Shown here piece after piece: positions 1,847-63,539 of a stretch of 64,000 nt of DNA (the first letter of the stretch is position 1; every line of letters starts with the position of its first letter). Under the pieces are notes generated by a model that made no database searches, was not told the DNA's origin, and was given only the letters and a program-made list of their open reading frames with translations. The DNA is from an uncultured Alloprevotella sp. (GTDB taxonomy: Bacteria; Bacteroidota; Bacteroidia; Bacteroidales; Bacteroidaceae). Made by a program: the position numbers and the translations under genes. The DNA lies in assembly GCA_944322325.1 (NCBI GenBank), contig CALUOQ010000006.1, positions 75,134 through 139,133 on the forward strand, read 5' to 3'.

Positions 1847-3181
1847 TTAGAGAATGCCCTGGGCCATCATGGCGCGGGCCACTTTCATGAAACCGGCGAC
1901 ATTGGCACCCTTGACGTAGTTCACATAACCGTCGTCCTGGCGGCCGAATTTCACGCACTGCTCGTGGATGTTCTGCATGATAGTGCGCAGACGGTTGTCC
2001 ACTTCCTCTGCCGTCCAGCTCAGCTTTTGCGCGTTCTGCGTCATTTCAAGACCCGAAACCGACACACCGCCGGCATTGGCGGCCTTACCCGGAGCATAGA
2101 GAATCTTGGCCTCGAGGAACGCATCGATTGCCTCAGGCGTTGAGGGCATATTGGCGCCTTCGCTGACGGCAATGCAGCCATTGGCGAGGAGCGTCTTGGC
2201 ATCGTCGCCGGTCAGTTCGTTTTGCGTGGCGCTCGGCATGGCGATATCGCACTTCTCGCCCCAAGGACGCGCACCGGCGACGTACTTCACGCCGTACTTC
2301 TCGGCATACTCGCGAATGCGGCCGCGGTACAGATTCTTCAGCTCCATGATGTAATCGAGCTTCTCGCGGTCGATGCCGTCGGGGTCGTAGATGTAACCGT
2401 CGGAGTCGGACATGGTCACAACCTTGGCGCCAAGCTCGATGAGCTTCTCCACCGTGTACTGCGCCACATTGCCCGAACCCGATACCGTTACGACTTTGCC
2501 TTTCAGCTCTATGCCGCGCGTCTTGAGCATTTCGAGCAGGAAATATACGTTACCGTAACCGGTTGCTTCGGGGCGGATGAGCGAACCACCGAACTCCAGT
2601 CCTTTTCCGGTCAGCGTACCCGTGTTTTCGCGGGCCAGCTTCTTGTACATTCCGTACATATAGCCGACCTCGCGGCCGCCGACACCGATGTCACCGGCGG
2701 GCACGTCTGTATCCGGACCGATGTGACGCCAGAGCTCGGTCATAAACGCCTGACAGAAGCGCATTATCTCAGCGTTCGACTTGCCGCGCGGGCTGAAGTC
2801 CGAACCGCCTTTTCCGCCACCCATAGGCAGCGTGGTGAGCGAGTTCTTGAACGTTTGTTCGAAGGCAAGGAACTTCAGAATGGACTGATTCACCGATGCA
2901 TGGAAACGGATGCCGCCCTTGTACGGACCGATGGCGTTGTTGTGTTGAATGCGGTAGCCCATGTTGGTCTGGACCTTACCCTTGTCGTCCACCCAAGTGA
3001 CGCGAAACGAAAAAATACGGTCGGGGATGCACAGACGTTCGATTAAATTTACTTTCTCGAACTCGGGGTGTTCGTTGTAAACGTCTTCGATAGTTTCCAG
3101 TACCTCCTGCACCGCCTGATGGTACTCGGGCTCGCCCGGGAAGCGGCGCTTCAGCGAATCTAAGACTTCTGCTGCTTTCAT
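1847..3181 (-). CDS. gdhA: NADP-specific glutamate dehydrogenase
   Basis: ORF 1847..3193. 'GPYKGGIRFH' and 'LPMGGGKGGSDF' are Glu/Leu/Phe/Val dehydrogenase signatures. Start set at ATG 3181 (MKAAEVLDSLKRRFP), which matches the usual Bacteroidales GdhA N-terminus. Confidence 0.95.
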   Translation of the reverse strand: MKAAEVLDSLKRRFPGEPEYHQAVQEVLETIEDVYNEHPEFEKVNLIERLCIPDRIFSFRVTWVDDKGKVQTNMGYRIQHNNAIGPYKGGIRFHASVNQSILKFLAFEQTFKNSLTTLPMGGGKGGSDFSPRGKSNAEIMRFCQAFMTELWRHIGPDTDVPAGDIGVGGREVGYMYGMYKKLARENTGTLTGKGLEFGGSLIRPEATGYGNVYFLLEMLKTRGIELKGKVVTVSGSGNVAQYTVEKLIELGAKVVTMSDSDGYIYDPDGIDREKLDYIMELKNLYRGRIREYAEKYGVKYVAGARPWGEKCDIAMPSATQNELTGDDAKTLLANGCIAVSEGANMPSTPEAIDAFLEAKILYAPGKAANAGGVSVSGLEMTQNAQKLSWTAEEVDNRLRTIMQNIHEQCVKFGRQDDGYVNYVKGANVAGFMKVARAMMAQGIL

Positions 3182-47014: not shown

Positions 47015-47370
47015 CCTAAAATAACGAAGAATCGGCGAAAAAAACGCGACTTCCTTGCTCGCTTTTGAAATTAGCCGTATATTTGCCCTTAGAAAAAGGC
47101 TGTATCGGTTCGATCGGGGGTCTCATCAATAATATCTGAATACCGAGAAAGCTACTCCGCTCAATGGCGGGCCGACACGACGCAGTCGGGGTCGGATTAC
47201 AGAGAACGGAGAGGCACTCAAATCTTACTTTATCTCGGAGTTCCATCACATCGCCGGTACAGCCTCTTTTCTTTTTTTTCGCCCGGCCCTGCCTGCCGCA
47301 TTCTTCCTTCCGTTTTCTGAATCCCGTCTGCTGCCCGACCGCATAGCATCCGTCTTTCGCGTAAATACGT

Positions 47371-48170
47371 ACAGCTTTTGCGCCACGCGTCGCCCTGCCC
47401 TCGCGCTCCCTGAAACCGAACCCACGTAGGGGCGCGCCGACAGGCACGCCCGCGAAACCGATTTCGTCCGAACCAGCCCGGCACCCGTGCGATGTGTGCG
47501 CCGGGCGGGCGTGCCTGTCGGCGCGCCCCTACCTGCCTCGCGGCCACCGCGTCATGCGCCGCCCTGCCTTCGCGCTCCTTGAAACCGAACCCACGTAGGG
47601 GCGCGCCGACAGGCGCGCCCGCGTACTCGACTTCGTCCGGACCAGACCGGAACCCGTGCGACGTATGCGCCAACCGGGCGTGCCTGTCGGCGCGCCCCTA
47701 CCTGCCTCACGGTCTTTGCGCCATGCGCCGCACGGACCTCGATTTTACAAGTACTACGATAGAAATTCCTATCGTAGTCTTAGGATTTTCTATCGTAGTA
47801 CTTGTTCTGTACGGGAACTACACTTGTTATTCCTGCGACGGAACCCACGTAGGGGCACGCCGACAGGCACGCCCGCGAAACCGATTTCGTCCGAACCAGC
47901 CCGGCACCCGCGCGACGTATGCGCCAACCGGGCGTGCCTGACGGCGCGCCCCTACCTGCCTCGCGGCCACGGAGTCACGCGCCGCCCTGCCTTCGCGCTC
48001 CTTGAAACCGAACCCACGTAGGGGCGCGCCGACAGGCACGCCCGCGAAGCCGACTTCGTCCGAACCAGCCCGGCACCCGCGCGACGTATGCGCCAACCGG
48101 GCGTGCCTGTCGGCGCGCCCCTACCTGCCTTGCGGCTTCAACGTCCTCATGGCTGCGGCGGCGCGCCATG
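47371..48170. repeat. Tandem array of four GC-rich 107-nt hairpin units (family B)
   Basis: The hairpins lie at 47426..47532, 47595..47701, 47849..47955 and 48018..48124. Each has 27-nt arms GTAGGGGCGCGCCGACAGGCACGCCCG / CGGGCGTGCCTGTCGGCGCGCCCCTAC (0-2 mismatches) around a conserved 53-nt loop. The linkers are conserved as well. The period is 169 bp, and 254 bp where A8 is inserted. Confidence 0.85.
47741..47830. repeat. Family-A element, copy A8, nested inside the family-B array
   Basis: 'ttttacaagtactacgatagaaattcctatcgtagtcttaggattttctatcgtagtacttgttctgtacgggaactacacttgtt'. Confidence 0.8.
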
Positions 48171-48807: not shown

Positions 48808-49746
48808 CTACTCAGGTTCCACCTCCATGGATGGCACCCATTGGCGGCGGAAGTCCTCGGGCCACTGGTGCGTCTCGCGCTGAAAGAAGCGCCTGAAATA
48901 GTTCACGTCCGGTAAACCCAACTCGCGCACAATTTCAAGAATAGGCCTATCCGAATAAGCCAGCATCTGCTTCGCCTTAAGTATATACCAATCATGCATC
49001 ACCTGTAGCGGCGTCACGCCGGCCACGTCGCTTGTGACTCGTTGCAGCTTTCGCATGGACAGTCCCAGCATCTCGGCGTAATCATTTACTTTAAGCGCCT
49101 CCTTGTAGTGCTGCTCCAGCAATTGCTGAAAGCGGTAAAACGTGTGCAGTTGTTTTTGACTTTGAGACTTCTGGCTGTCCGGCCAAACACAGTGCCGCCT
49201 GAAAAACACGAAAAGCAGCGTGAGGTGAGCCGCCAGGCAGTCCCAATGCGCATCCAGGAACTTGCCCGTCGTCTGTTCCCGCCCGATGCGGTCCAACAAG
49301 TCGCGCAGTTCGTCCTCGGCCTCGGGCGGCACGTCGCAGTAGGGTACACGCCGGTAACGGTTGAACAGGCCGAATTCAAAATCCTCGGCCAGCTGCGCGT
49401 TGACTAAGGGCAGCGCGTCGCGCCCCAACAGCAGGCTGACGCCCGCCTCGCCACACATATTATTATAAGCGTGCATCTGGTCGGCCGAAAGGAAGAATAC
49501 GCGGCCCGGGCGTACCTCATGCGGCTCGAAGTCGACGATGTGCGTCCCCCGGCCGGCGGTGAACCACAACACGGAGTGGAACCCGTGCGAGTGCACCGTT
49601 TCCTTCATCTTCGGATGGACAACCGCCGCCTCGTCGAAGGCCGCCACGTCGCAATAGAACGGGCTTCCCGACCCGTCGTTCAGCTCGTAATGCAACCGTT
49701 CTGCCCCGTCCACTTTTCGGATCGTTCTTTCGTAACAATGGTTCAT
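48808..49746 (-). CDS. AraC family transcriptional regulator (cupin N-domain + HTH_18)
   Basis: 312 aa. The C-terminal double HTH includes 'VNDYAEMLGLSMRKLQRVTSDVAGVTPLQVMHDWYILKAKQML' and 'ILEIVRELGLPDVNYFRRFFQRETH'. Confidence 0.85.
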   Translation of the reverse strand: MNHCYERTIRKVDGAERLHYELNDGSGSPFYCDVAAFDEAAVVHPKMKETVHSHGFHSVLWFTAGRGTHIVDFEPHEVRPGRVFFLSADQMHAYNNMCGEAGVSLLLGRDALPLVNAQLAEDFEFGLFNRYRRVPYCDVPPEAEDELRDLLDRIGREQTTGKFLDAHWDCLAAHLTLLFVFFRRHCVWPDSQKSQSQKQLHTFYRFQQLLEQHYKEALKVNDYAEMLGLSMRKLQRVTSDVAGVTPLQVMHDWYILKAKQMLAYSDRPILEIVRELGLPDVNYFRRFFQRETHQWPEDFRRQWVPSMEVEPE

Positions 49747-49763
49747 GGCTTCCGTTTTGCCCG

Positions 49764-49771
49764 CAAAAGTA
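49764..49771 (-). promoter_or_regulatory. -7 box TACTTTTG upstream of the AraC gene
   Basis: 17 nt upstream of ATG 49746. It shares the divergent intergenic region with the cassette promoter. Confidence 0.4.
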
Positions 49772-49878
49772 GGGGAAATCTCCGAAACGACGAGGGAAAA
49801 CCGTCCCTCACCTGCATTTTGTCCGAAAATTACGGAAATCTGTCGCGTTTTTACTTGGCGAATGCAGGCATCGCCCCC

Positions 49879-49886
49879 TAAATTTG
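49879..49886 (+). promoter_or_regulatory. -7 box TAAATTTG upstream of the glycosyltransferase/rSAM/peptide cassette
   Basis: 32 nt upstream of ATG 49919. It is the only such box I see before 53964 on this strand. Confidence 0.45.
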
Positions 49887-49918
49887 CAAGCGAAGAAACA
49901 AACTAAAAATCAACAGTC

Positions 49919-52321
49919 ATGCCCACCTCGCCCGCCATATCCGTCTGCATGTCGATGTACAACGCCGCACCCTACCTGCGCGAGTGCATCGACAGTGTGC
50001 TGGCCCAGACGTTAGCGGACTTCGAGTTCATCATCGTCGACGACGGGTCGGAGGACGACAGCGCGACGATCGTGGCCTCGTATGCCGACCCGCGCATCCG
50101 GCTGATACGGGGCGATCACGACTACGTGGCCTCGCTCAACCGCTCGCTCGACGAGGCGCGGGGCCGCTACGTCGCCCGCATGGACGCCGACGACGTGATG
50201 CACCCCGAGCGCCTGGCGCGGCAGTTCGCCTATATGGAGGCGCACCCCGACGTCGACCTGACGGGTGGTCGCATGACGGCCTTTCGCGACGACATCGGCA
50301 CCCCGCTGTTCGAGCTCTACGTCCGCGAGGGGCGCCTCGACCTGGCCGACCTGCTCGACGGCTGCTGCATCTGCCACCCCACGGTGATGGTGCGCACCGA
50401 GCGCCTCAACGCGCCGGCCCGGCTGCGCTATCGCAAAGAGTGGGTCTACGCCGAGGACTACGACCTGTGGGTCGAGATGCTCGGCCACGGCCTGCGCCTC
50501 GTCAACCTGCCCGACATCATGGCCTACTACCGCCTCCACTCCGGCCAGATCACCGCCTGCCGCCGCGACGAGCAGGGCGAGAAGTCAGGCGCCATACGCG
50601 AACGCGCCCTGCGGCTTATCGGCCAGCTGACGGACGAAGCCTTCACCGAGGAGGCCGACGTGCCCGCCTCCACCAGGCGGCTGACCGTCGTCATGCCCTT
50701 CCTGAACGAAGGCGAGGAGGTCGGCCGCACCGTGCGCAGCATCCGCCAGACGGCGGGCGACTCGGTCGACATCCTCGTCCTCAACGACGATTCCGACGAC
50801 GGCTACGACTACGAGGCCGACCTGGCCGGACTCGGCGTCACCTACCTGCACAACCGCCACCGTCTCGGCGCCGCCTTAGCCAAGGAGCGCGGCGCCCGGC
50901 TGGCCCGGACGCCTTATTTTATGTTGCTCGACGCCCACATGCGTTTCTACGAGCCGGGCTGGGCCGACTACGTGGCCGACGAGCTCGACCGCGACTCCCA
51001 GCGCCTCCTCTGTAGCAAGTCCATCTCGCTGCAAAAGGACGAGCAGGGCCACGTCGCACCGGCCCCCGACACCTGCTCGCCGCAGGGCGCCTACCTGATG
51101 TTCCTCTCGCAAAAGAACGTCCCTGCCATCGACTGGAACAACTACGAGGAACGCCTGCCCACCTGTGCCGAAAACCAGATTCCCTGCGTGCTCGGTGCCG
51201 GCTATGCCACCTCCAAGACTTACTGGCAAAAGATTCGCGGCCTCCAGGGCCTCGTCCATTACGGCTGCGAGGAGGCTTACATCAGCATCAAGGCCTGGAA
51301 GGAGGGCGGGGGCTGCTACCTACTGCCCCGGCTGGCCATCGGGCACATCTACCGCAAGGCTTTCCCTTACAAGGTCCACTCCTTCCTTTACCTGTATAAC
51401 TACCTCGCCATCAGCGAGCTGCTTTTCCCCACGTCCGAGCGGTACTTCGCCAAGGCCGTGGCGTGGCAGCTGAACAAGAAAGCCCTCCACACGACGCTGG
51501 AGTTCATGGACACACGCCGCGAGCTGAACCAGGAACTGAAAGCCTGCTACCGCACCCTCCGCCGGCACGACTTCGCCTACGTCAAGCGCCTGAACGAAAT
51601 TTGCCGCAAGGTGGCCCAGCGCGTCAACCGCATCTCCGACGACGAGGCGGCACAGGCCATGGACTTCCTGACCGAGCGCCGCCAGACCCTCGGCGGCATC
51701 GGCTTGTTCGACGGCCTGGCGGGCGCCCTCATCGCCACCCTGCTGTACGTCGAGGCCGGCCACGAGACGCAGGAGAGCCTCGCCGCGGAACTGTGGGAGC
51801 GCCTCTCGTCCCAGCTGTCGCAGCCCCACAACCTCTCGTTCCGCTCGGGGCTGACCGGCGTCGGCTGGGCGCTGATTTACGCCGCCTCCCACGGGCTCAT
51901 AGAGGACAGCATCGACGCGGAGCTCGCCCTGATCGACCGGCAGGTGGCCACGCTCAGCCTGCGGCGCTGCGACGATCTGTCGTTCCTCGACGGGCTGGGC
52001 GGCATCTACGCCTACGTCACGGCGCGCCTCGGCTACGACCGGCGGCGCGGCCTGCCCGAGGCGACGTTCGCGCCCGGTTTCCTCGAGGAGATGGACGCCG
52101 AGGCACGCCGCGTGCTGACCGACTCCGACGACTGGCGCACGAAAAATTTCGCCGGACAGTTCACCGAGCGCCACGCCGACGACTGGGAAATCCTCGCCCC
52201 GGAGTTTCCCGAAATCGTCGAACTGCCCGACTACCTGCCCAACGACGTAGGCAAATGGCAGCTCACGCTGCCGGGCATCGTCGGCTCGGTCATCAACAAA
52301 CTCATCAACGAATTCCATTAA
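49919..52321 (+). CDS. Tandem GT-A glycosyltransferase fused to a LanC-like helical-repeat C-terminal domain
   Basis: 800 aa.
- Module 1 (residues about 6-230) is a classic GT2 ('ISVCMSMYNAAPYLRECIDSVLAQT', 'IIVDDGSED', DxD 'RMDADD').
- Module 2 (about 255-485) has 'VVMPFLNEGEEVGRTVRSI', a DxH at 'LLDAHMRF' (50930..50938) and 'GCEEAYISIKAWKEGGGCYLLPRLAIGHIYRK', which resembles the polypeptide-GalNAc-transferase (GT27) catalytic core.
- Residues about 590-705 carry three 'G(L/I)xxG(L/G)xG' repeats reminiscent of LanC, without obvious Zn ligands. Confidence 0.8.
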   Translation: MPTSPAISVCMSMYNAAPYLRECIDSVLAQTLADFEFIIVDDGSEDDSATIVASYADPRIRLIRGDHDYVASLNRSLDEARGRYVARMDADDVMHPERLARQFAYMEAHPDVDLTGGRMTAFRDDIGTPLFELYVREGRLDLADLLDGCCICHPTVMVRTERLNAPARLRYRKEWVYAEDYDLWVEMLGHGLRLVNLPDIMAYYRLHSGQITACRRDEQGEKSGAIRERALRLIGQLTDEAFTEEADVPASTRRLTVVMPFLNEGEEVGRTVRSIRQTAGDSVDILVLNDDSDDGYDYEADLAGLGVTYLHNRHRLGAALAKERGARLARTPYFMLLDAHMRFYEPGWADYVADELDRDSQRLLCSKSISLQKDEQGHVAPAPDTCSPQGAYLMFLSQKNVPAIDWNNYEERLPTCAENQIPCVLGAGYATSKTYWQKIRGLQGLVHYGCEEAYISIKAWKEGGGCYLLPRLAIGHIYRKAFPYKVHSFLYLYNYLAISELLFPTSERYFAKAVAWQLNKKALHTTLEFMDTRRELNQELKACYRTLRRHDFAYVKRLNEICRKVAQRVNRISDDEAAQAMDFLTERRQTLGGIGLFDGLAGALIATLLYVEAGHETQESLAAELWERLSSQLSQPHNLSFRSGLTGVGWALIYAASHGLIEDSIDAELALIDRQVATLSLRRCDDLSFLDGLGGIYAYVTARLGYDRRRGLPEATFAPGFLEEMDAEARRVLTDSDDWRTKNFAGQFTERHADDWEILAPEFPEIVELPDYLPNDVGKWQLTLPGIVGSVINKLINEFH

Positions 52322-52328
52322 ACTACCT

Positions 52329-53638
52329 ATGAAGAAAAGTCTCTACAACTTCCTGTTTCTTTGCGAGGGCGACTGGGTCTTGTTCAACCTCGCCACCGAG
52401 GAGATGAGCCTCCTCGACGCCAAGGTGAAGCAAATCTACGAGGAAAACGACATGGAGGGTATCCGCAGGCTCCACCCGGACTTCTACACCTTTCTGACGG
52501 AGAAGCGCTTCGCCGTACCCGACGACGAGGACGAAGCCGCCGCCTGCATCGCCCGCTGGGACCGCGAGGACAACGACCCGACCACTTTCTCGCTCACCGT
52601 TAACCCTACGCTCGACTGCAACATGCGCTGCTGGTACTGCTACGAGCGCCACCACACGGACCGCACCATGAGCGCCGAGGTGGCCGCAAGCGTATTCAAG
52701 TTCGTGGAAAGGAAGCTGGCCGAGCCCGAACTGAAGCACTTCAACCTCGCCTTCTTTGGCGGCGAGCCTTTAGTGGAGTTCCAGTCGGTGGTCAAGCCGC
52801 TGGTGGACCACACCTGCGCCGTGGCCGACCGGTTGGGCAAGGAGGTCGGCCTCAGCTTCACGACGAACGGCTACCTGCTCACGCCCGACGTGCTGCAATA
52901 CCTCGCCGACACGGGGTGCCACGTCAATTTCCAAATCACGCTCGACGGCAACCAGCGCCTCCACGACCGCACACGCCACCTCGCCGACGGCTCCGGCAGC
53001 TACGCCCGTATACTCGACAACTGCCACAACCTGCTGGCGCAGCCCCGGACGAGCCTGACGCTCCGCTGCAACTATACGCAGATGAACGCAGCGACGTTCA
53101 TGGACCTCGTCCGCGACCTGCCGGACCACGGCATCACCCCGAGCGAAGCGCTCCACATCGACTTCCAGCGCGTATGCAGGACCGCGGGAACAACAAGGAG
53201 GTCGACGAGCAAATCCACCGCGTACAGCTGGTCCTCCAGCGCGACGGCTATTCCACCTCGGACGTATGGACTTTCCATAAATACCGCTGCTACGCCGAGC
53301 GCAATAACCATATTGTCGTCAACTACGACGGTAACCTGTTCCACTGCACGGCGCGCGACTTCACCCCCACCGCTGCCGAGGGCGAACTCGACGCCGAAGG
53401 GCACCTTCAGCCCAACGAGAAGTCGGCCAAGCGCGCCCAGGCCAAGTGGGACAACGACGCCTGTCGCGCCTGCACAGTCTATCCCCTCTGCGGCGGCCTT
53501 TGCAGCCAGCAAAAACTTGAGCACCTCGGCGTAAGGGGCTGCATCGCCGGACGCGACGAGAAGGCGAAACGCGAAATCGCCGAACAGCGATTGCTACAAC
53601 TGATAGAGATGGCTAAAAAACAGCCCAAACACAATTAA
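52329..53638 (+). pseudogene. Radical SAM/SPASM peptide maturase, reading frame broken near 53150..53176
   Basis: Frame 1 (52329..) gives an N-terminal extension of about 95 aa, then 'CNMRCWYCY' (CxxxCxxC, 52617..52640) and a TIM-barrel-like sequence up to 'EALHIDFQRV'. After that it degenerates into S/T/A/P/R-rich text. The +2 frame (in ORF 52916..53638) picks up 'MQDRGNNKEVDEQI...CYAERNNHIVVNYDGNLFHCTARDF...ACRACTVYPLCGGLCSQQ', the SPASM signature CX2CX5CX3C (53462..53506). Joined, the two parts make about 436 aa. Confidence 0.8.
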
Positions 53639-53661
53639 TCACTTCTTAAAAACAAACAACT

Positions 53662-53913
53662 ATGAGATTAAAGAAAAATCTATCTCAGCTTGTGGAGTCC
53701 AACTTTACTCCACTCAGTACGGACAAGGAAGGCCTTCTGCGCGGAGGCTTCGGAGCAATGACATTCGACGCAGCTGCTCATGTCGCTGCCCGTTCTAATT
53801 ATCTTTTTTGCAATAATGACAATTGCAATGACGGGTGCTCAAATGATTGCAATAAGTCTTGTGCTCCTCCTTCAAAGTCTGGGGAATCCGCCGCACTTTT
53901 CCAAGGATTTTAA
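53662..53913 (+). CDS. RiPP precursor-like peptide: Gly-Gly leader + CXXX-repeat Cys/Asn/Asp-rich core
   Basis: 83 aa: MRLKKNLSQLVESNFTPLSTDKEGLLRGG | FGAMTFDAAAHVAARSNYLFCNNDNCNDGCSNDCNKSCAPPSKSGESAALFQGF. It starts 23 nt after the maturase stop. Cys residues sit at 50, 55, 59, 63 and 67. The gene is visibly AT-richer than its surroundings. Confidence 0.7.
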   Translation: MRLKKNLSQLVESNFTPLSTDKEGLLRGGFGAMTFDAAAHVAARSNYLFCNNDNCNDGCSNDCNKSCAPPSKSGESAALFQGF

Positions 53914-53927
53914 GCGGTAACTGAACG

Positions 53928-53964
53928 AAGTCCGTATACCCGCAATGAGGTATGCGGACTTTTA
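53928..53964 (+). terminator. Hairpin (terminator/attenuator) directly after the precursor gene
   Basis: 11-bp stem aagtccgtata / tatgcggactt (one G-U pair) with a 12-nt loop, followed by TTAG. The U-tract is weak, so partial read-through into the OMP gene is plausible. Confidence 0.45.
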
Positions 53965-54003
53965 GTGCTCCATTGCCCACAGCGATCTGAAAACTATCCA
54001 CCT

Positions 54004-56949
54004 ATGAAAAAAATTCTAACCCTCCTTCTTGCCCTGTTATCCCTACCTTTGGCCCTTTCGGCACAGAAGTGCTGGATTGAGTTCCGCGTGTACGAAGAAA
54101 TCACCGGTAAAGAAATCGAGGCCCCGCACTTCACCCTTATTTACGAAGACTCCATTGAGGTTCCCGCCGAGTACAAGTTGCAGGAGGCCACCTATGTTAA
54201 TTCGCCTAAGACTTACCGTGCACATACTTTGGTGTTCGACTATCGCAAGGGGAAGTACACGCTTCGCGTCGAAAAGGAGGGTTATGAATCGGGGAGCAAG
54301 GATTTTCGCGTCGTCTCGCGACGCCTCACGGGCTTTGGCCTCGGTACCATCTTGCTGAAGAAGCGGCGCCACGTCGAGCTGGGCGAGGCCACCGTGCGGG
54401 CCACCCACATCAAGATGGTGATGCGCGGCGACACCGTCGTCTACGACGCGGCGGCCTTCGACCTGGCCGAGGGGTCGATGCTCGACGCCTTGGTGGAGCA
54501 GCTGCCGGGCGTGGAGCTGAAAGACGGGCAGATACGGGTCAACGGAAAGTTTATCGAGAGCCTCCTGCTGAACGGCGAGGATTTCTTCGCGGGCAATCCG
54601 AAGGTCGCCCTGGAGAACCTGCCGGCCTACACGGTGAAGCAAATCAAAGTGTATGACCGCGCCGAGCGCGACGCCTACCTCAAGCCGAAAGGGGCGGACG
54701 GCAAGGTCATCGGCGCCGACGAGCACATGGTGATGGACGTGCAGCTGAAGAAGGCCTACGCTACGGGATGGATGGGCAACGTCGAGGGCGGATACGGCCT
54801 GCCCGACGACCGCTATCTCGGCCGGGCCTTCGGTCTGGGCTATAGGGACAAGGCGCGCTTCTCGGTCTTTGCCAACCTGAACAACATCAAGAACACGCAA
54901 ATCGGGCGCAGCAGCGGCCAGTGGAGCGGGGGCTGGCCGCAGGACGGCGAGCTCGACGTGAAGATGAGCGGGGCGGACTACTACTTCAGCCGCGGCCGGG
55001 CGTGGGTGGCCGGCGACGTGCTGATCACCCACGAGGAGCCCAAGGTGGAGCAGAAGCAGAGCGCCGTCTCCTTCTTCAACTCGGGCGACGTCTACGAGCG
55101 GCTGCACAGCGTCAGCCGGGAGCGCAAGTTCCACCTCATCACGGCACACCAGTTGCGCTTCACGGACGACAATTTCTATTTCCAGGTAATACCGCGGCTG
55201 GACTACCTGCACAACGACGTCAGCCGCCTGAGCCGCGCCGCGCAGTTCACCGCCAACCCCACCGAGGCCTACCGTATGGAGTCGCTCGACTCCCTCTTCG
55301 CCCTCGGCGGACTGCGCTCGCCCTTCGCCGTCAGCCTGCTCAACCGCACCGGGCAGATGCAGGAAGGCCCCGAAAGCTGGATTATCGCCGGCATCAACGC
55401 CAGCGCGACCATCAGCATCCCCCACCTGAACGACAACGTTAAACTCTACGCGGACGGCGAGTACCGCCGCGACACCGAACGCCCGCTCACGACGTGGAGC
55501 CGCGCCTTCGGGCCGCAAAGCACGGCAGGCAGCACGGCGCAAAACGTCCTCCAGAACAAGGACTACGACGCGCGGCAATACCACGTCAAGGCCGGAGCGA
55601 GCTATACCTACTGGTGCGTCCCCTACCGCGAACACGACACCCACGCCTTCATCGCGCAACCGAAGTTCGACTACGCCCGCGACCACCACGACCGCGCGAA
55701 CACCCTGTGGCAGTTAGAGGAAAGCCTGACCGACGCCGCGGCGGGCCAGGGCGTCGTCCTGCCCTCGACGATCGACCCCGCCCGGCTGGCCCTCGACCTC
55801 AACAATTCCTATCACTCCGCGCTGGCCCAGGACGACTATGCGCCGGGCGTGGAGCTGGACTACCAGTTCCTGCCCGAAGAGGGTGACCTTCTGAGGGACT
55901 ACACCGTATCGCTCGACCTGACGCAACACCTGCGCCGCGAACGTCTCGACTACGAGCGCGACGGCCTCGACACGACCGTGACGCGCTGGTCGGGCTCGCT
56001 GGAGCCCACCGTCGGGCTGGAATACCGCGACAAGCACCCCGAGACGCCCACCCGCCTGACCCTGACCTACGGCTACAGCCAGGCAATGCCGAGCCTCTAC
56101 TACCAGCTCGGCACGGTCGACGACAGCGACCCGGCCAACGTCTACGTCAACAACCCGGGCCTGCGCCGGGCCTCCACCCACAACGCCAGCCTGGAGTTCA
56201 CCCGCTTCTGGCAGGCCACGCACCGCAACCTGAGCGTCAACGCCAACTTCAGCCACACCAACCGTGCCGTGGCCCAGGCGCGCCACTACGACCGCCAGAC
56301 GGGCGTCAGCACCTGGGTGCCCGAGAACATCGACGGCAACTGGAACACCGACGCCGCGGTGCAGTTCACGCTGCCCTTTGGCCGCGACGAGGCCTTCCAG
56401 TTCCAGACGGCCACGACCGGCGCCTTCGTCCACTCGGTGGACTACGCCACCGACACCGAGGAACTGACGCGCAGCGTCGTGGACAACCTGCGGCTCGGCG
56501 AACGGCTCGGCCTGACCTACCGCGTCAACAAGCACACCTTCGGTCTCAAGGGCAGCCTGGCCTGGCTGCGCAGCCGCTCGGAGCGCGCCAATTTCGACGA
56601 CATCTCCGCCTTCGACGTCACGGCGGGCGCCAACGTATTGCTCAACCTGCCCCAGGAGTGGCAAATAGGCACCGACATGACCCTGTACTGCCGACGCGGA
56701 TACAGCGACGCGACGCTCAACACGACGGACTGGGTGTGGAACGCCTCGCTCAGCAAGTCCCTGCTCGACGGCAAGCTGTCGCTGAAACTCGACGCCGTGG
56801 ACATACTCGGCCAAATCAGCAACGTGCAGCACACGGTCAACGCGCAGGGACGCACCGAAACCTGGACGAACGCCGTGCGCAACTACGCCATGCTCCACGT
56901 CACCTACCGTTTCCACATCCTCCCCAAGAAAAAAGCCGCCGACAACTGA
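54004..56949 (+). CDS. Outer-membrane beta-barrel family protein (CarboxypepD_reg-like N-domain + plug-like segment + large barrel)
   Basis: ORF 53965..56949, start at ATG 54004 (MKKILTLLLALLSLPLALSAQ). 'GDTVVYDAAAFDLAEGSMLDALVEQLPGVELKDGQIRVNGKFIESLLLNGEDFF' is the TonB-receptor-plug-like motif of the Bacteroidetes 'OMP_b-brl_3'-type family as I recall it. The C-terminus has the aromatic strand 'LHVTYRFHI'. Confidence 0.7.
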   Translation: MKKILTLLLALLSLPLALSAQKCWIEFRVYEEITGKEIEAPHFTLIYEDSIEVPAEYKLQEATYVNSPKTYRAHTLVFDYRKGKYTLRVEKEGYESGSKDFRVVSRRLTGFGLGTILLKKRRHVELGEATVRATHIKMVMRGDTVVYDAAAFDLAEGSMLDALVEQLPGVELKDGQIRVNGKFIESLLLNGEDFFAGNPKVALENLPAYTVKQIKVYDRAERDAYLKPKGADGKVIGADEHMVMDVQLKKAYATGWMGNVEGGYGLPDDRYLGRAFGLGYRDKARFSVFANLNNIKNTQIGRSSGQWSGGWPQDGELDVKMSGADYYFSRGRAWVAGDVLITHEEPKVEQKQSAVSFFNSGDVYERLHSVSRERKFHLITAHQLRFTDDNFYFQVIPRLDYLHNDVSRLSRAAQFTANPTEAYRMESLDSLFALGGLRSPFAVSLLNRTGQMQEGPESWIIAGINASATISIPHLNDNVKLYADGEYRRDTERPLTTWSRAFGPQSTAGSTAQNVLQNKDYDARQYHVKAGASYTYWCVPYREHDTHAFIAQPKFDYARDHHDRANTLWQLEESLTDAAAGQGVVLPSTIDPARLALDLNNSYHSALAQDDYAPGVELDYQFLPEEGDLLRDYTVSLDLTQHLRRERLDYERDGLDTTVTRWSGSLEPTVGLEYRDKHPETPTRLTLTYGYSQAMPSLYYQLGTVDDSDPANVYVNNPGLRRASTHNASLEFTRFWQATHRNLSVNANFSHTNRAVAQARHYDRQTGVSTWVPENIDGNWNTDAAVQFTLPFGRDEAFQFQTATTGAFVHSVDYATDTEELTRSVVDNLRLGERLGLTYRVNKHTFGLKGSLAWLRSRSERANFDDISAFDVTAGANVLLNLPQEWQIGTDMTLYCRRGYSDATLNTTDWVWNASLSKSLLDGKLSLKLDAVDILGQISNVQHTVNAQGRTETWTNAVRNYAMLHVTYRFHILPKKKAADN

Positions 56950-58585: not shown

Positions 58586-61500
58586 GTGTCAATGAACCGA
58601 ATCATAGTCTCGTTGCTGCGCCGCGTGTGGCTGGCCGTCCTCGTTTGGCCGCTGGCTGCGCGGGGTGGCGACTTCGTCGACCTGCGGCCGGCCGACTACC
58701 CCGTGGGCGACGCGCTGCCCCGCTACACGACGGTCGTCCCGCTGGGGCGCGACTACGCAGCGGGCGGCTACACCGTGCGGGCTGACTATCCCGAATATGC
58801 CCCGCTGACCCCGGCGGAAACCAGACGCCTGCGCCGCGCAGGCATCACCCTGCCCGACACGCTGGAGGTCACCACGCGCCTCGGCGTCAGCCGCAAGGAA
58901 GGGCAGCTCGACGTGACGGTGCTGCCTTTCGTCGTGCGCGACGGACGGCCCATGCGCCTCGTGTCGTTCAAGCTGGCGGTCGAGCCGCGCAGCGCCGACC
59001 GCGCCCGCGCCCGGCGCACAGTCAGGTCCGCCGCCGACCGATGGGCAGACAGCTCGGTGCTGGCCGAAGGACGCTGGGTCAAGATTCGCGTCAGCGAGGA
59101 GGGTATTTACCAGCTCTCCGACGCCCAACTGTCGCAGATGGGCTTCGACCGCCCTGACCGCGTCCGCCTCTACGGTTACGGCGGCCGACCGCAACCCGAG
59201 ACGTTCGACTTCAGCTCGGCCGACTGCCCCCCCGACGACCTCGAGGAGGTGCCCCTCTACCGCCGCGAGGGCTCGCTCCTGTTCTTCGCCGAGGGCACGC
59301 AGCGCTGGACGCTGAGTGCGGGCCGCTGGACGCACACGAACAATCCCTACTCGGCCTATTCCTACTACTTCCTGACCGAGGGCGAGGCGACACCCGCCAC
59401 CCTACCGACACTCGACGCCCCCGCCAACAGCGGACAGACCGTTGCGCGCGTCACGGCCCATGCCGTCGTGGACAACGACGCCTACAGCTGGTTTCCCGGC
59501 GGCCGGCGCTTTTACGACAGCTACGACTTCGCGCAAGGCAACAGCCGCACGTTCAACGTCGCCACGCCGGGCGTCGTCGAAGGCGAGCAGGCCCGCGTAG
59601 CCGTACGCTTCTCCGCGCACTCGTCGACGGGCAGCGTGACCGTAGGCGTGGCGCTGGGCAACGCGACTGTCGGCACGCTCAACATCGCGCGCTCCGACGA
59701 ATCGGACCTAGCCCGCGAGACCGAATCGACTTTCACGACGACGGCACTCCGCGAGAGTAACGCCTTCCGCCTTACCACACCGACGGGCGTCCCGGCCCGC
59801 CTGGACTACATCCGCATCAGCTACGAACGGCAACTGACCGCCGGGAGCACGCCCCTTGTCTTTACGACCGCCACGTCGGGGCCGGTTACCTTCGAAATCA
59901 GCAACGCCGACACCCGGACGCGCGTATGGCGGATCGGGCAGGCCGGCGACCCCGTGGCCGAAGTGGCTGCGACGCTCGACGGCACCACGCTGCGCGCCCC
60001 CGTCAACCGGGGCGACCGGCGCTACGTGGTGTTCGACGCAACGGCCACCTACCCCGCCCCCACCGTCGTGGGCACCGTCGAGAACCAGAACCTCCACGCC
60101 GACCGCGACGTGGATATGGTGATCATCGTCCCGGCCAGCGGCACGCTGACGCAACCCGCCGAACGCCTCGCCGAAGCCCACCGCAGCGCACAGGGACTCA
60201 CCGTCAGGGTGGTCCGGGCCGACCAGATTTTCAACGAGTTCTCCTCCGGCACCCCCGACGCCAACGCCTATCGCCGCTACCTCAAGCTGCTGTACGACAG
60301 CAGCAGCGAGGGCCGCGAGCCGCGCTACCTGCTGCTCTTCGGCGACTGCTTGTGGGACAACCGCATGGTGACGCCGGAAAACCGGGGGAAGAACCCCGAC
60401 GACTACCTGCTGGCCTACGAGAGCGAAAACTCACTGAGCGAAATCGACTGCTACGTGACCGACGACTTCTTCGGTATGCTCGACGACGGCGAAGGCGCCA
60501 ACCTCCGAACGGAGAAAATGGACGTGGCCATCGGACGCTTCCCCTGCACCACCGAAAGCGACGCCCAGACACTCGTCAGCAAGGCTATCGCCTACCTGAA
60601 CAACGAGGCGGCAGGCCCGTGGCAGAACTTGCTCTACTTCCTGGCCGACGACGGCGACGGCAACCTGCACATGGAGGGCGCAAAGCGCGCCATGGACGCC
60701 ATCAGCGGACAGGCGGACGACTACGTCATACAGCCCGTGTTCTGGGACGCCTATCCCCGCGAGGTCACGTCGACGAGCCGCAGTTATCCCCAAGTCGAAG
60801 AACTGCTCCACACCGCCATGGCCGACGGCGCCTTAGTGATGAACTATACGGGGCACGGAGACCCGAACCGCGTGTCGCACGAAAATGTGCTCACCTTGGA
60901 GGATTTCCGGACGAACCGCACGACGGGACTGCCGCTCTGGGTGATGGCCTCGTGCGAGGTAACGCCCTACGACAACGGCGAGGACAACATGGGCCGCGCC
61001 GGCATACTCAATCCCGCCGGGGGCGGTATCGCGTTCATCTGCGCCTCCCGCACGGTCTACGCCAACCGCAACGAGGAACTCAACATGGCCCTTATGCCCG
61101 AACTCCTGGCACGCACGGCCGACGGACGGCAGCAGACCATGGGCGAAGCGCTGATGCACGCAAAAAACGCACTGGTCGAGTCGGGCGCGGACCAGACCTC
61201 GAACCGCATCAAGTACGCCCTGACGGGCGACCCCGCCCTGCCGCTCGCCACGCCGAGCGAGGGCATCGTCGTGGACAGTATCGACGGACGCCCCCTCGCT
61301 GACGGCGAAAAACTGACCTGGGCGGCGGGCAGCACGGTGCGCCTGAGCGGCCGCGTCGTGACCGACGGAGCCACGCCCATCGACGACTTCCGCGGCGTGG
61401 TCAGCGCCACCGTGTTCGACCGCGCCGAGACCGTGACGTGCCGCAACAACGACGGGTCGGCCGACGAGCCGTACGTGTTCACCCAGCGCAATAAGGTGAT

Positions 61501-62347
61501 TTTCGAAGGCAGCGACAGCGTGCGCAGCGGCCGATTCAGCCTCAAGTTCCAGGTACCGATGGACATCAGCTACTCCACCGACAACGGCCGCGTCGCCCTC
61601 TATGCCGTCAACGACAGCCACTCGCTCACCGCACACGGCGCCAACGAGCAGTTCTGCCTCGACGGTACGGCGCCGGGCCTCGTCGACGACACCGAGGGCC
61701 CCGACGTTTACGTCTACCTCAACCGGCCTGATTTCCCCGACGGCGGTCTAGTGGGCCCGACCCCTGTCTTTTTCGCCGAAATCACCGACTCGAGCGGCGT
61801 CAACACCACCGGCAACGGCGTGGGCCACGACTTGGAACTCAGCCTCAGCGGTACGGCCACCGGAAACTACGTGCTGAACAACTACTTCGCCTACGACTTG
61901 GGCAGCAGCACCCGCGGACGCGTCAGCTACGCCTTGCCCGAACTCGAGGAGGGCAGCTATCGCTTGCAGTTCCGCGCGTGGGACATCATGAACAACCCCA
62001 CGACCGTCAGCCTCAACTTCACGGTGGTGCGCGACCTGGCTCCGCAGCTTTCGGTCAGCGCCACCGACAACCCCGCGCGCACCTCGACGTCGTTCGTACT
62101 GACCTACGACCGGCCGGGCACGGCGGGCACGTTTACGGTCGAAGTGTTCGACCTCACGGGCCGCCGCCTGTGGACGCAGACCGCACAGACCACCTCGTCG
62201 ACCGGCAGTGTGACCATACCGTGGGACCTGACCGACACGGGCGGCGCGCCGATGAACGGCGGCGTCTACCTGTTCCGCGCGCGCCTCACCGCGGACGGCG
62301 CGACGACCGAAACGAAAGCCCAGAAAATGATTATCCTCAAACAATAA
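58586..62347 (+). CDS. porU: Type IX secretion system sortase PorU (C25-like peptidase)
   Basis: 1253 aa with a signal peptide. 'VDMVIIVPASGTLTQPAERLAEAHRSAQGLTVRVVRADQIFNEFSSGTPDANAYRRYLKLLYD' matches the gingipain/C25-like core of PorU. It is immediately followed by porV. The C-terminal beta-sandwich ends 'GVYLFRARL'. Confidence 0.85.
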   Translation: MSMNRIIVSLLRRVWLAVLVWPLAARGGDFVDLRPADYPVGDALPRYTTVVPLGRDYAAGGYTVRADYPEYAPLTPAETRRLRRAGITLPDTLEVTTRLGVSRKEGQLDVTVLPFVVRDGRPMRLVSFKLAVEPRSADRARARRTVRSAADRWADSSVLAEGRWVKIRVSEEGIYQLSDAQLSQMGFDRPDRVRLYGYGGRPQPETFDFSSADCPPDDLEEVPLYRREGSLLFFAEGTQRWTLSAGRWTHTNNPYSAYSYYFLTEGEATPATLPTLDAPANSGQTVARVTAHAVVDNDAYSWFPGGRRFYDSYDFAQGNSRTFNVATPGVVEGEQARVAVRFSAHSSTGSVTVGVALGNATVGTLNIARSDESDLARETESTFTTTALRESNAFRLTTPTGVPARLDYIRISYERQLTAGSTPLVFTTATSGPVTFEISNADTRTRVWRIGQAGDPVAEVAATLDGTTLRAPVNRGDRRYVVFDATATYPAPTVVGTVENQNLHADRDVDMVIIVPASGTLTQPAERLAEAHRSAQGLTVRVVRADQIFNEFSSGTPDANAYRRYLKLLYDSSSEGREPRYLLLFGDCLWDNRMVTPENRGKNPDDYLLAYESENSLSEIDCYVTDDFFGMLDDGEGANLRTEKMDVAIGRFPCTTESDAQTLVSKAIAYLNNEAAGPWQNLLYFLADDGDGNLHMEGAKRAMDAISGQADDYVIQPVFWDAYPREVTSTSRSYPQVEELLHTAMADGALVMNYTGHGDPNRVSHENVLTLEDFRTNRTTGLPLWVMASCEVTPYDNGEDNMGRAGILNPAGGGIAFICASRTVYANRNEELNMALMPELLARTADGRQQTMGEALMHAKNALVESGADQTSNRIKYALTGDPALPLATPSEGIVVDSIDGRPLADGEKLTWAAGSTVRLSGRVVTDGATPIDDFRGVVSATVFDRAETVTCRNNDGSADEPYVFTQRNKVIFEGSDSVRSGRFSLKFQVPMDISYSTDNGRVALYAVNDSHSLTAHGANEQFCLDGTAPGLVDDTEGPDVYVYLNRPDFPDGGLVGPTPVFFAEITDSSGVNTTGNGVGHDLELSLSGTATGNYVLNNYFAYDLGSSTRGRVSYALPELEEGSYRLQFRAWDIMNNPTTVSLNFTVVRDLAPQLSVSATDNPARTSTSFVLTYDRPGTAGTFTVEVFDLTGRRLWTQTAQTTSSTGSVTIPWDLTDTGGAPMNGGVYLFRARLTADGATTETKAQKMIILKQ

Positions 62348-62375: not shown

Positions 62376-63539
62376 ATGAAAGCAATTCGTGAAATCGCCC
62401 TGACCCTAGCCGGAGCCACCGTAGCGCTCAGCGCCGTCGCCGACGATAAGGAGGAGATGTTCAATCCGATTGTCACTTCCGTCATTTCGCAAAGCATCGC
62501 CCCCGACGCGCGGGCCGGCGGCCTCGGTGATGTCGGCGCGGCCACCGACCCCGACGTCAACTCCCAAGCCTGGAACCCGGCCAAGTATCCCTTTTGCATC
62601 AGCCGCGCCGGCGTGTCCATCGACTATACCCCCTGGCTCCGCTCCATCGTCAATGACATCGACCTGGCCTACCTTGTGGGCTACTATCGCCTCGGCGACT
62701 ATCAGGCCCTCAGCGCTTCAGTGCGCTACTTCTCCCTCGGTTCCGTCATGACCGACGACCCGAACATGACGGTCAAGCCCTATGAGATGGCCTTCGACGT
62801 TGCTTACTCGCGCATGCTGAGTGAGCGCTTCTCGGCCGCCGTCGCGCTGCGCTACATGTACTCCGACATGAGCGGACACTACGACGACCAGGTGACGGCC
62901 GGTTCGGCTTTTGCCGCCGACATCGCCTGTTACTACAACAACTACGTCATGATGGGCAACCGGGAGTGCCAGATTGCCTTCGGTGTAAACCTGAGCAACA
63001 TAGGCAGCAAGATCAATTACGGCGAGGACTACTCCTATTTTATCCCGACCAACCTTCGCATCGGCCTGAACTACATGATTCCGCTCAACGAGTACAACCG
63101 TATCTCCTTCTGCGCCGACATCAACAAACTGCTGGTGCCCTCGAAACCTCTACAGGAGGACAACGAGACCGACGAGGACTTCCAGGACCGCGTACAGCAG
63201 GAGTACTACGACGTATCGTCGATATCGGGCATATTCAAGAGCTTCGGCGATTCACCCAACGGCTTCAAGGGCGAACTGGAGGAAGTGCAGTGGAGCGTCG
63301 GCGCCGAATATACGTACAACGACAAGTTCACTGTGCGCGCCGGCTACCACCACGAGAGCGAGAGCCAAGGCAACCGCAAATACTTCACCTTTGGCGCGGG
63401 TTTCCGCATGAGCGTTTTCTCGATCGACGCGGGCTACGTGTGGTCCACGGCGGCGAGCAACCCGCTCGACCAGACGCTCCGCGTTTCCCTGGCGTTTGAC
63501 TTCGACGGCATCCGCGACCTGTTCCGCGGCCGTCGCTAA
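62376..63539 (+). CDS. porV: Type IX secretion system outer-membrane protein PorV (LptO)
   Basis: 387 aa. Has the N-terminal 'SIAPDARAGGLGDVGAATDPDVNSQAWNPAKYPF' PorV signature and a FadL-like barrel. Confidence 0.85.
   Translation: MKAIREIALTLAGATVALSAVADDKEEMFNPIVTSVISQSIAPDARAGGLGDVGAATDPDVNSQAWNPAKYPFCISRAGVSIDYTPWLRSIVNDIDLAYLVGYYRLGDYQALSASVRYFSLGSVMTDDPNMTVKPYEMAFDVAYSRMLSERFSAAVALRYMYSDMSGHYDDQVTAGSAFAADIACYYNNYVMMGNRECQIAFGVNLSNIGSKINYGEDYSYFIPTNLRIGLNYMIPLNEYNRISFCADINKLLVPSKPLQEDNETDEDFQDRVQQEYYDVSSISGIFKSFGDSPNGFKGELEEVQWSVGAEYTYNDKFTVRAGYHHESESQGNRKYFTFGAGFRMSVFSIDAGYVWSTAASNPLDQTLRVSLAFDFDGIRDLFRGRR

Follow-up and report, generated by a model that had tools for sequence, protein, structure and literature searches.

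A 64,000-nucleotide stretch of DNA from an uncultured Alloprevotella sp. (GenBank assembly GCA_944322325.1, contig CALUOQ010000006.1, positions 75,134 to 139,133 of the forward strand), hereafter called the window, carries at positions 49919 to 56949 a tightly packed set of genes, the first three of which an initial annotation had read as a cassette for a ribosomally synthesized and posttranslationally modified peptide (RiPP). The set encodes a three-domain glycosyltransferase (GT) fusion enzyme, a radical S-adenosylmethionine (rSAM)/SPASM maturase, a small Cys-rich precursor peptide, and an outer membrane protein (OMP). Our analysis suggests that the window probably holds a decaying copy of a conserved, chemically uncharacterized RiPP cassette of Bacteroidales. 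The cassette and its immediate surroundings comprise the following features.

48808..49746, minus strand: AraC-family regulator, divergent, 312 amino acids (aa); Pfam HTH_18, HTH_AraC, and AraC_binding.
49747..49918, no strand assigned: divergent promoter region of 172 bp with two Bacteroidetes -7-type boxes.
49919..52321, plus strand: fusion enzyme gene, a single open reading frame (ORF) of 800 aa.
52329..53638, plus strand: rSAM gene, present as overlapping ORFs 52329..53534 and 52916..53638; 436 aa once repaired.
53662..53913, plus strand: precursor gene, a small ORF of 83 aa.
53928..53964, plus strand: hairpin followed by UUUU, directly 3' of the precursor gene.
54004..56949, plus strand: OMP_b-brl_3 gene, 981 aa from its ATG, with a signal peptide.

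The fusion and rSAM genes are separated by 7 nt, and the rSAM and precursor genes by 23 nt. The coordinates, gaps, boxes, motifs, and hairpin of the initial annotation all proved correct when the sequence was reread. Its view that the cassette ends at the hairpin was only partly right: the hairpin is real and conserved, but the unit runs past it, and the OMP_b-brl_3 gene belongs to the cassette. The fusion enzyme at the head of the cassette is composed of three domains.

49919..50638 (aa 1-240), plus strand: domain 1, a GT2 domain of the SpsA/chondroitin synthase type, identified by Pfam, PDB matches, and invariant residues.
50657..51433 (aa 247-505), plus strand: domain 2, a GT27-like catalytic domain, identified by HMMER and motifs.
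51599..52321 (aa 561-800), plus strand: domain 3, a LanC-like half alpha/alpha-toroid, identified by Pfam and Foldseek.

Pfam Glycos_transf_2 matches the fusion enzyme with a whole-protein E value of 1.4e-48. Domain 1 finds chondroitin synthase (2z86/2z87; E = 6e-19) and streptococcal GalT1 (5hea; E = 3e-13) in the PDB, and the residues D41 D42, D89-x-D91-D92, and E179 D180 are invariant in 41 homologs. Domain 2 was aligned by HMMER to the animal enzymes GalNAc-T10, T2, T1, T4, T9, and T12 over about 240 residues, which is the whole catalytic domain, with a best E value of 1.6e-13 (GalNAc-T10). Where the GalNAc-Ts (T10, T2) have LDSHCE, WGGEQYEISFKVWMCGG, and VGHIYRKYVPYKV, domain 2 has LLDAHMR, YGCEEAYISIKAWKEGGG, and IGHIYRKAFPYKV, respectively, the last pair corresponding to the third metal-binding (Mn) His of the GT27 site. 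The DxH, Gal/GalNAc-T, and Mn-His motifs of GT27 are all present, and D338, H340, E452, and H476 are invariant in 41 homologs. No ricin-type lectin domain was found in the fusion enzyme by Pfam, the C terminus being LanC-like instead, and no signal peptide or membrane segment was seen at the N terminus when the sequence was inspected by eye, no predictor having been run.

LanC-like repeats had been proposed for the fusion enzyme, and the fold of its C-terminal part agrees with this. The AlphaFold model of domain 3 has a predicted local distance difference test (pLDDT) score of 93, its first nine Foldseek matches in the PDB are all LanC-type domains, and ThurKC, CuvL, LanCL1/2, GCR2, LicM2, and NisC are included among the matches. 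The likeness is nevertheless weak and partial: Pfam LANC_like scores 20.0 bits, below the gathering score of 23.2, the Foldseek E values are 0.02 to 0.15 with TMq values of 0.34 to 0.43 over about half a barrel, and the comparison of the ~240-aa domain with LanCL1 and NisC (TMt, 0.26 to 0.29) likewise corresponds to roughly half a LanC barrel. G644, G647, G649, W650, D673, Y699, R703, and G789 are invariant, but the zinc ligands (the Cys/Cys/His triad) are absent. Because no Cys or His is conserved in domain 3 among the 41 homologs, the domain is not a cyclase, and no gene for a LanB, LanM, or kinase/lyase dehydratase was found in the cassette of the window or in those of its relatives. From these sequence features, domain 3 is predicted to bind the peptide and not to cyclize it, domain 2 to attach the first sugar to Ser/Thr, and domain 1 to extend the glycan. 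At 50% clustering, about 50 of the best 150 matches are full-length members of the fusion family. Many proteins of about 550 aa (P0378, P0379, P0388, P0391, and others) have the GT27-like and LanC-like domains only and lack the GT2 domain at the N terminus; this two-domain unit may be an ancestral module that is used in other Bacteroidales peptide systems, too.

The maturase was analyzed as the repaired 436-aa protein, and an alignment of 41 homologs was used to judge invariance. Its rSAM cluster motif CxxxCxxC (C97/C101/C104) is invariant, and Pfam Radical_SAM matches, as anticipated, with 47.2 bits (gathering score, 29.5). The SPASM region has the form C321-x13-G-x4-C340 ... C379-x2-C382-x5-C388-x3-C392 ... 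C405, with C321, G335, C340, C379, C382, C388, C392, and C405 all invariant, and it thus contains the full set of seven Cys residues. Peptide-maturase (RiPP) families are the best NCBIfam matches, although every score lies below the respective cutoff: TIGR04463 (rSAM_vs_C_rich) is the best with 188 bits (cutoff, 525), followed by the geopeptide maturase TIGR04280 with 164 bits (cutoff, 400), the CefB "Cys-every-fifth" maturase NF038107 with 144 bits (cutoff, 600), and PapB with 137 bits. Because the first three scores are all far below the cutoffs, the enzyme belongs to a sister family of TIGR04463, TIGR04280, and NF038107 and is not a member of them. The anaerobic sulfatase maturase family reaches 66.5 bits against a cutoff of 349, in line with the earlier assignment of the enzyme as a peptide maturase and not a sulfatase-maturing enzyme. 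Membership in the CXXX-repeat maturase family, which had also been expected, was not borne out (TIGR04115, 70.8 bits; cutoff, 350). The GG-Bacteroidales maturase family (TIGR04148/04149/04150 system) is absent from the 25 best NCBIfam matches, and a second rSAM-like gene that might encode a pseudo-rSAM partner was not found in the cassette of the window.

The closest solved structure is that of the ranthipeptide maturase CteB, both by sequence (E = 6e-16) and by fold, for which the AlphaFold model of a 98%-identical intact homolog (pLDDT, 93) gave a full-length Foldseek alignment (E = 3e-16). The N terminus of this model forms three strands (residues 7-12, 15-20, and 25-29) followed by three helices (31-39, 42-48, and 50-58). 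In the model, it has the layout of a RiPP recognition element (RRE) and is an RRE-like domain, which agrees with the earlier remark that such an N-terminal extension is the usual site of RREs. The maturase is, then, a CteB-like rSAM/SPASM enzyme of the peptide-maturase type.

For the precursor peptides, a leader hidden Markov model (HMM) was seeded with two sequences, and 84 small ORFs next to homologous maturases were collected. They share one architecture, namely, a double-glycine leader, a core of Cys/Asn repeats, a Ser/Thr/Pro-rich tail, and a hydrophobic C terminus. The leader follows the pattern ...P(L/A)xxxxEGxLxGG|F, with L26, G28, G29, and F30 unchanged throughout an alignment of 25 precursors; the double-glycine leader of the initial annotation is thereby confirmed. 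The precursor of the window has a leader from M1 to G29 ending in LLRGG, and its sequence ...EGLLRGG|F shows the marks of the double-glycine leaders of peptides exported by a peptidase-containing ABC transporter (PCAT) of the C39 type: it ends in GG, position -4 is Leu, and position -7 is acidic. Its five Cys residues lie at positions 50, 55, 59, 63, and 67, three of them in N-x-x-C motifs and with three literal C-x3-C repeats, and it closes with the tail APPSKSGES and the hydrophobic end ALFQGF. Across the precursors, 68% of the Cys residues have Asn at position -3 (background, 13.7%), the commonest Cys spacing is 5, and 3 to 10 NxxC motifs stand in tandem. Runs such as TTTTTTT or PTPTP occur in many tails, and the last residue is F in 33 and L or I in 18 of 61 precursors (51/61 together). 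Relatives of the window peptide at 61 to 74% identity, and near-identical ones as well, keep the leader and the tail while the core varies. None of these peptides has a name or a Pfam or NCBIfam assignment. A search of five of them against NCBIfam (E <= 10) gave no match to the GG-Bacteroidales precursor family, contrary to expectation; the TIGR04117 precursor family did not match the window precursor and scored 21.8 bits (cutoff, 50) with one CNxx-repeat relative, a compositional match.

The Asn signal bears directly on the reaction of the maturase. A chemistry other than a Cys-to-Asn beta-thioether is conceivable but rather unlikely: the enzyme might form an alpha-thioether (sactionine), use another acceptor, or make a C-C bond, and Asn might be structural or a glycosylation site. 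This would fit a maturase that falls below all curated family cutoffs and whose nearest structural relative, CteB, makes Cys-Thr gamma-thioethers, and several precursors have NNCxC motifs, with Asn common at -1 and -2, too. However, Asn three residues before Cys stands out well above all other position-specific signals in the family, N-x-x-C is exactly the substrate motif of NxxcB (PMC9389541), and the closest families are all thioether-forming maturases of Cys-rich peptides. We accordingly favor a beta-thioether to Asn.

The composition of the tails likewise bears on where the sugars go. In loci that contain the fusion gene, the tails have a median length of 24 aa and a Ser/Thr/Pro content of 41%, compared with 10.5 aa and 26% in loci that do not. 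The initial annotation had seen a working cassette in which a CXXX-repeat-type rSAM enzyme cross-links the peptide, a SunS/ThuS-like GT2 domain S-glycosylates Cys, and the LanC-like domain acts on the peptide. It is true that the genes exist, lie close to one another, and are conserved as a group, that the window peptide has its three C-x3-C repeats, and that the N-terminal GT2 domain matches SunS, if marginally (E = 0.003, confined to aa 4 to 98). Yet the constant of the family is N-x-x-C and not C-x3-C, the TIGR04115 score is far below the cutoff, and Cys residues used in thioethers would leave none free for sugars. Moreover, the LanC-like domain lacks zinc ligands, a dehydratase gene is absent, and the rSAM gene of the window carries an inherited frameshift (see below). 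The alignment of domain 2 with GT27 enzymes and the Ser/Thr/Pro-rich tails, which track the fusion gene, point instead to O-glycosylation. We consider the earlier scheme improbable as a whole; in particular, the sequence of the fusion enzyme points to O-glycosylation of the tail and not to S-glycosylation of Cys.

The cassette is conserved well beyond the window. A scan of species-representative genomes yielded at least 566 loci with a gene related to that of the maturase, and 80 Bacteroidota loci (given L numbers here) were kept for comparison. In tblastn searches with the proteins of the window, the three-domain fusion enzyme adjoins the maturase on the same strand in about 55 of the 80 loci and in several genera. 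Together with the small ORF next to homologous maturases, this co-occurrence supports the reading as a RiPP-type cassette. The hosts include Bacteroides fragilis, Phocaeicola coprophilus, Paraprevotella xylaniphila YIT 11841, and Prevotella spp. Loci with the fusion gene almost always contain an OMP_b-brl_3 barrel and a PCAT and often a protein of about 130 aa, while loci of Flavobacteriia and Cytophagia consist of maturase and transporter only. By gene calls, the common order is fusion, rSAM, small ORF, OMP, PCAT, and ~130-aa protein, as seen in a Prevotella-like contig, B. fragilis (L086), and P. coprophilus (L090). The ~130-aa membrane protein has no Pfam match, and its one NCBIfam match, to MAG1140, is weak. 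Thus, the absence of a peptidase and an exporter noted earlier holds for the copy in the window but not for its relatives, which carry the OMP, PCAT, and small membrane protein genes directly downstream. For the precursor of P. coprophilus alone, the sequence collection shows entries in 624 blocks.

Some of the cassettes contain additional glycan-tailoring genes. In B. fragilis, a GT11 fucosyltransferase gene lies directly upstream (L086, 9161-9973); in P. coprophilus, a Branch/GT14 (Core-2/I-branching) gene lies between the OMP and PCAT genes (L090, 12298-13176); and P. xylaniphila has a Branch/GT14 gene (L017, 17759-19297) and an NAD-dependent epimerase. FkbM-type methyltransferases were found in three loci and a DUF3405-like protein in five. 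GT11 and GT14 are enzyme families used in the elaboration of animal mucin O-glycans. An apparent extra GT2 gene upstream in L051 was rejected, as it encodes a DDE transposase.

This conservation makes it very improbable that the fusion enzyme serves polysaccharide synthesis or general protein glycosylation and neighbors the rSAM and precursor genes by chance. What could be said for such a role is that the best NCBIfam matches of domain 1 are exopolysaccharide and teichuronic acid transferases, all far below the cutoff, and that the public annotation of the protein says "glycosyltransferase" and no more. But the fusion gene adjoins the rSAM gene in most of the loci compared, is only 7 nt away from it in the window, and co-occurs with precursors whose tails are rich in Ser/Thr/Pro. 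In the cassettes inspected, genes for a flippase, a polymerase, or other steps of polysaccharide synthesis were not found. The fusion gene lies outside polysaccharide loci, in line with the initial annotation.

The OMP (Pfam OMP_b-brl_3, E = 1.5e-18; no solved homolog was found by PDB sequence search) is closely tied to the peptide. In 50 of 63 cases, its gene comes immediately behind that of the precursor, and the peptide-OMP pair is repeated two to four times per cassette in L017, L019, L025, L007, L035, L059, and L079, the locus L059 containing two complete cassettes in tandem. Each precursor thus seems to be matched with an outer membrane barrel of its own. The product might then be a cell surface glycopeptide that is held by, or inserted together with, its OMP, the C terminus resembling the beta-signal of an OMP or an added strand. 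Such a fate is a possibility to which we give only limited credence. The one-to-one pairing and its duplication as a module, the predominance of F, L, or I as the last residue, the mucin-like tails, and the absence of a membrane fusion protein from the relatives' cassettes inspected would all agree with it. On the other hand, a PCAT and an OMP without a fusion protein are also found in Bacteroidales RiPP clusters that are taken as exporters (PMC10352776), and a hypervariable core behind a conserved leader is typical of secreted RiPPs.

The stable hairpin just 3' of the precursor gene is a recurrent feature, too, and is present in related loci (49/62; median z = -4.8). In the window, the fold of positions 53905-53975, which contain the hairpin, has a free energy of -25.5 kcal/mol (z = -4.0), and none of 200 shuffled sequences was as stable (0/200). 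The hairpin may act as an attenuator or a transcript stabilizer.

In the window itself, the cassette is damaged, and the locus, which had been thought to make a peptide, is most likely nonfunctional in this genome. The rSAM frame is restored to 436 aa by one base inserted anywhere in 53160-53189. Because Trp283 in the sequence RVWQD, encoded by TGG, is invariant in the 41-homolog alignment, we place the lesion at this codon, which has lost one G after position 53176. The same G is missing in L088, an independent, 96%-identical contig from another sample, while L001 to L003 and L089 have an intact TGG. The frameshift is therefore a real, inherited mutation and the rSAM gene is a pseudogene. A programmed frameshift was rejected because the nearest relatives have an ordinary TGG at the site. 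L089 was likewise rejected as a third independently frameshifted copy; it is a long-read assembly in which the neighboring gene of glycoside hydrolase family 77 (GH77) is fragmented, too, and its frameshifts were for this reason treated as sequencing errors.

Sister strains carry lesions of their own. L001 to L003 have a CAG-to-TAG nonsense codon at residue 420 (Q420) of the fusion enzyme, and they share with L088 a 771-bp deletion, equivalent to window positions 53898-54668, through which the precursor gene runs at its 3' end into the OMP gene at codon ~230 (L001, 9560-9575; L088, about 3047-3055). L088 is also disrupted upstream of codon ~334 of the fusion gene, and truncated members of 377 to 683 aa occur in the 90% cluster of the fusion enzyme. 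The strains that share the deletion come from different samples, and they differ in the rSAM frameshift; the strains thus carry mosaics of lesions, a pattern that suggests recombination within the species. No PCAT gene was found in the 64-kb window by tblastn, and the genes that follow the OMP gene in L001 are unrelated housekeeping genes. A sister lineage with the same AraC and lipoprotein flank (L091) has an intact maturase and a canonical six-Cys precursor. It is the rSAM frameshift, the lack of a PCAT gene nearby, and the lesions in sister strains that make the locus most likely nonfunctional, and the simplest reading is that the cassette is now being lost in this species.

Intact cassettes encode, in order, a GT2/GT27-like/LanC-like enzyme that would be cytoplasmic; a CteB-like rSAM/SPASM maturase with an RRE; one or more double-glycine precursors, each with a hairpin and its own OMP_b-brl_3 barrel; in some species, tailoring enzymes (GT14 Branch, GT11, or methyltransferases); and finally a PCAT and the ~130-aa membrane protein. 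Taking the domain identities, conserved motifs, gene order, co-occurrence, and link between fusion and tails that we observed together, we propose the following pathway. The rSAM enzyme would bind the leader through its RRE and make thioethers from the core Cys residues, the most probable acceptor being the Asn three residues upstream, to give a beta-thioether. NxxcB, which links Cys to Asn by a beta-thioether at an NxxC motif, is a precedent (PMC9389541). The GT27-like domain would put N-acetylhexosamine (HexNAc) on Ser/Thr of the Ser/Thr/Pro-rich tail, the GT2 domain would add a second sugar, and GT14, GT11, or methyltransferases would elaborate the glycan in some species, while the LanC-like half-barrel may hold the peptide as a peptide-binding module. 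The PCAT would then cut after GG and export the peptide, and the paired OMP may handle the outer membrane step.

Several points weigh against this pathway or against decay. (i) The chemistry of the cassette is deduced from sequence throughout, and no product has been seen. The maturase is far below each curated cutoff (at best 188 against 525 bits), and its reaction could therefore differ, and the precursor of the window has a short tail with only three Ser and no Thr. (ii) Three genes of the copy in the window, those for the fusion enzyme, the precursor, and the OMP, are intact, and a PCAT could be encoded elsewhere in this genome. The ratios of nonsynonymous to synonymous substitutions (dN/dS) of the cassette genes (0.10 to 0.27) are not above those of the flanking genes (0.04 to 0.35). 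This means either that the decay is recent or that parts of the cassette remain in use; an old decay through relaxed selection finds no support. On balance, we still regard a decaying copy of a conserved RiPP cassette that works as proposed as the probable explanation.

A more far-reaching idea is that gut Bacteroidales make "mini-mucins," that is, thioether-knotted peptides with mucin-type O-glycans that are started by a GT27 relative, extended in some species by a GT14 Branch enzyme of the core-2 type or a GT11 alpha-1,2-fucosyltransferase, and delivered by a cognate barrel, so that host glycans are mimicked in the form of a RiPP. The Thr/Ser/Pro-rich tails would then be glycosylated in the cytoplasm, and the one-to-one barrel would receive the product or pass it on. 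This idea is speculative, and we hold it to be somewhat less likely still than the alternatives for the rSAM chemistry and for the fate of the product discussed above. If the predicted chemistry is true, the cassette would define a RiPP family that joins radical thioether cross-linking with multisugar O-glycosylation and would offer, in a tractable bacterial form, a relative of the enzymes that initiate mucin glycosylation in animals. The strict peptide-OMP pairing is relevant to the passage of a modified peptide through the Gram-negative outer membrane, and the cassette could help to show whether such products serve as bacteriocins or as glycopeptides of the surface or facing the host. Gut Bacteroidales of humans and animals commonly carry the cassette, and its presence in the cultured species B. 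fragilis, P. coprophilus, and P. xylaniphila makes it directly testable. The window mainly shows such a cassette in the course of its loss.

Upstream of the cassette, the divergent promoter region contains a TAAATTTG box at 49879-49886 on the plus strand, 33 nt 5' of the ATG of the fusion gene, and a TACTTTTG box at 49764-49771 on the minus strand, 5' of the AraC gene. By their sequence, both are candidate promoter elements; TANNTTTG occurs 39 times in the window, while 13.2 +/- 3.3 occurrences are expected. The AraC neighbor is also present in the close relatives L001 and L091, and its position is occupied by a tetratricopeptide repeat (TPR) protein of about 590 aa in more distant cassettes. 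This TPR protein and a secreted protein of about 125 aa lie 5' of the fusion gene in L019, L007, L026, L028, L059, L030, and L039. The G+C content of the window is 60%. It drops sharply to 45% in the precursor gene, compared with 61 to 66% in the flanking cassette genes, probably because of Asn/Lys/Ser-rich coding.

A few other features of the window were noted. Positions 47098-47270 (plus strand) contain a full-length Bacteroidales-1 RNA (Rfam RF01693), a suggested 6S-like RNA, with 110 bits against a gathering score of 60, and a TATATTTG box lies just upstream, at 47078. Together with the -7 boxes, this RNA assigns the window to Bacteroidales. Between the GH77 and lipoprotein genes, positions 47420-48130 contain about nine copies of a 30-nt G+C-rich unit (CACGTAGGGGCGCGCCGACAGGCACGCCCG) in alternating orientation with spacers of roughly 53 nt, located within direct repeats of 169 and 423 nt. 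This cluster looks like an intergenic repeat array of the repetitive extragenic palindrome/bacterial interspersed mosaic element (REP/BIME) type. Downstream of the cassette, the ORFs at 58586-62347 (1,253 aa) and 62376-63539 (387 aa) are unrelated to it; their counterparts in L001, which is 98% identical, encode a Peptidase_C25 (gingipain-like) protein and PorV of type IX secretion.

In the full-text literature searched, we found no account of a relation to GT27, of an NxxC core, of mucin-like tails, or of a pairing of peptide and OMP. The chemistry of the cassette is likewise not described there, which agrees with the initial annotation, but the combination of rSAM, LanC, and glycosyltransferase genes had already been flagged in two mentions based on BAGEL, neither of them with an analysis of products. 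One reports BAGEL4 areas with rSAM, LanC, and GlyS genes in B. fragilis and Parabacteroides distasonis, in which the zinc triad is missing and a LanB is absent (PMC10352776). The other lists a "putative glycocin" locus in B. fragilis 20793-3 (PMC4922554). These loci have the same combination of domains, belong to the same order of bacteria, and may be identical with the cassette described here; in B. fragilis, an ortholog of the fusion enzyme lies within an intact cassette (L086). BGC3 of the former study has a pseudo-rSAM partner and no PCAT, unlike the intact cassettes here. A paper on catalytic-site profiling does not cover Bacteroidota (PMC10288494).

Among characterized systems, the maturase is best compared with CteB of thermocellin (precursor CteA; PDB 5WGG/5WHY), its best match by both sequence and fold, and with PapB of freyrasin. 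These systems share with the cassette the N-terminal RRE, the CxxxCxxC core, the seven-Cys SPASM domain, and a Cys-rich precursor. However, the identity with CteB is only 17 to 20%, each family cutoff is missed, and the core motif is N-x-x-C instead of the Cys-Thr or C-x3-D of the CteA/PapB systems. The cassette further differs from those of CteB and PapB in its Gram-negative host, its OMP, and the pairing of the maturase with a glycosyltransferase. The name of the CefB "Cys-every-fifth" family matches the Cys spacing of 5, and the HMMs of the top three families align over most of the maturase. The NxxcA/NxxcB system of Streptococcus orisratti has the same substrate motif, Asn-x-x-Cys, which is dominant here (PMC9389541). 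The NxxcB substrate contains one such motif, compared with 3 to 10 in tandem here, the hosts belong to different phyla, and a close sequence relation was not established in this work; unlike the cassette, that system has neither glycosylation nor an OMP.

With the glycocins (sublancin, with SunA/SunS/SunT, and glycocin F), the cassette would share the use of a cytoplasmic GT-A enzyme on a double-glycine peptide, followed by C39 ABC export. Glycocins are disulfide-held helical hairpins with single S- or O-linked sugars, an architecture that differs from that of the peptides here; the cassette has an rSAM maturase, a GT27-like domain, mucin-like tails, and extra glycan-tailoring genes. The animal GT27 enzymes, which start mucin-type O-glycosylation, have a catalytic domain that aligns over its whole length with domain 2, the same motifs, and likely similar Thr/Ser/Pro-rich substrates. 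In contrast to them, the enzyme of the cassette is bacterial, appears to be cytoplasmic, has no membrane anchor or ricin-type lectin domain, and is fused to GT2 and LanC-like domains; the GT14 (core-2 branching type) and GT11 genes of some cassettes parallel the GT27 mucin pathway. By analogy with these systems, the cassette would work like a hybrid of a ranthipeptide/NxxC-type thioether peptide and a glycocin.

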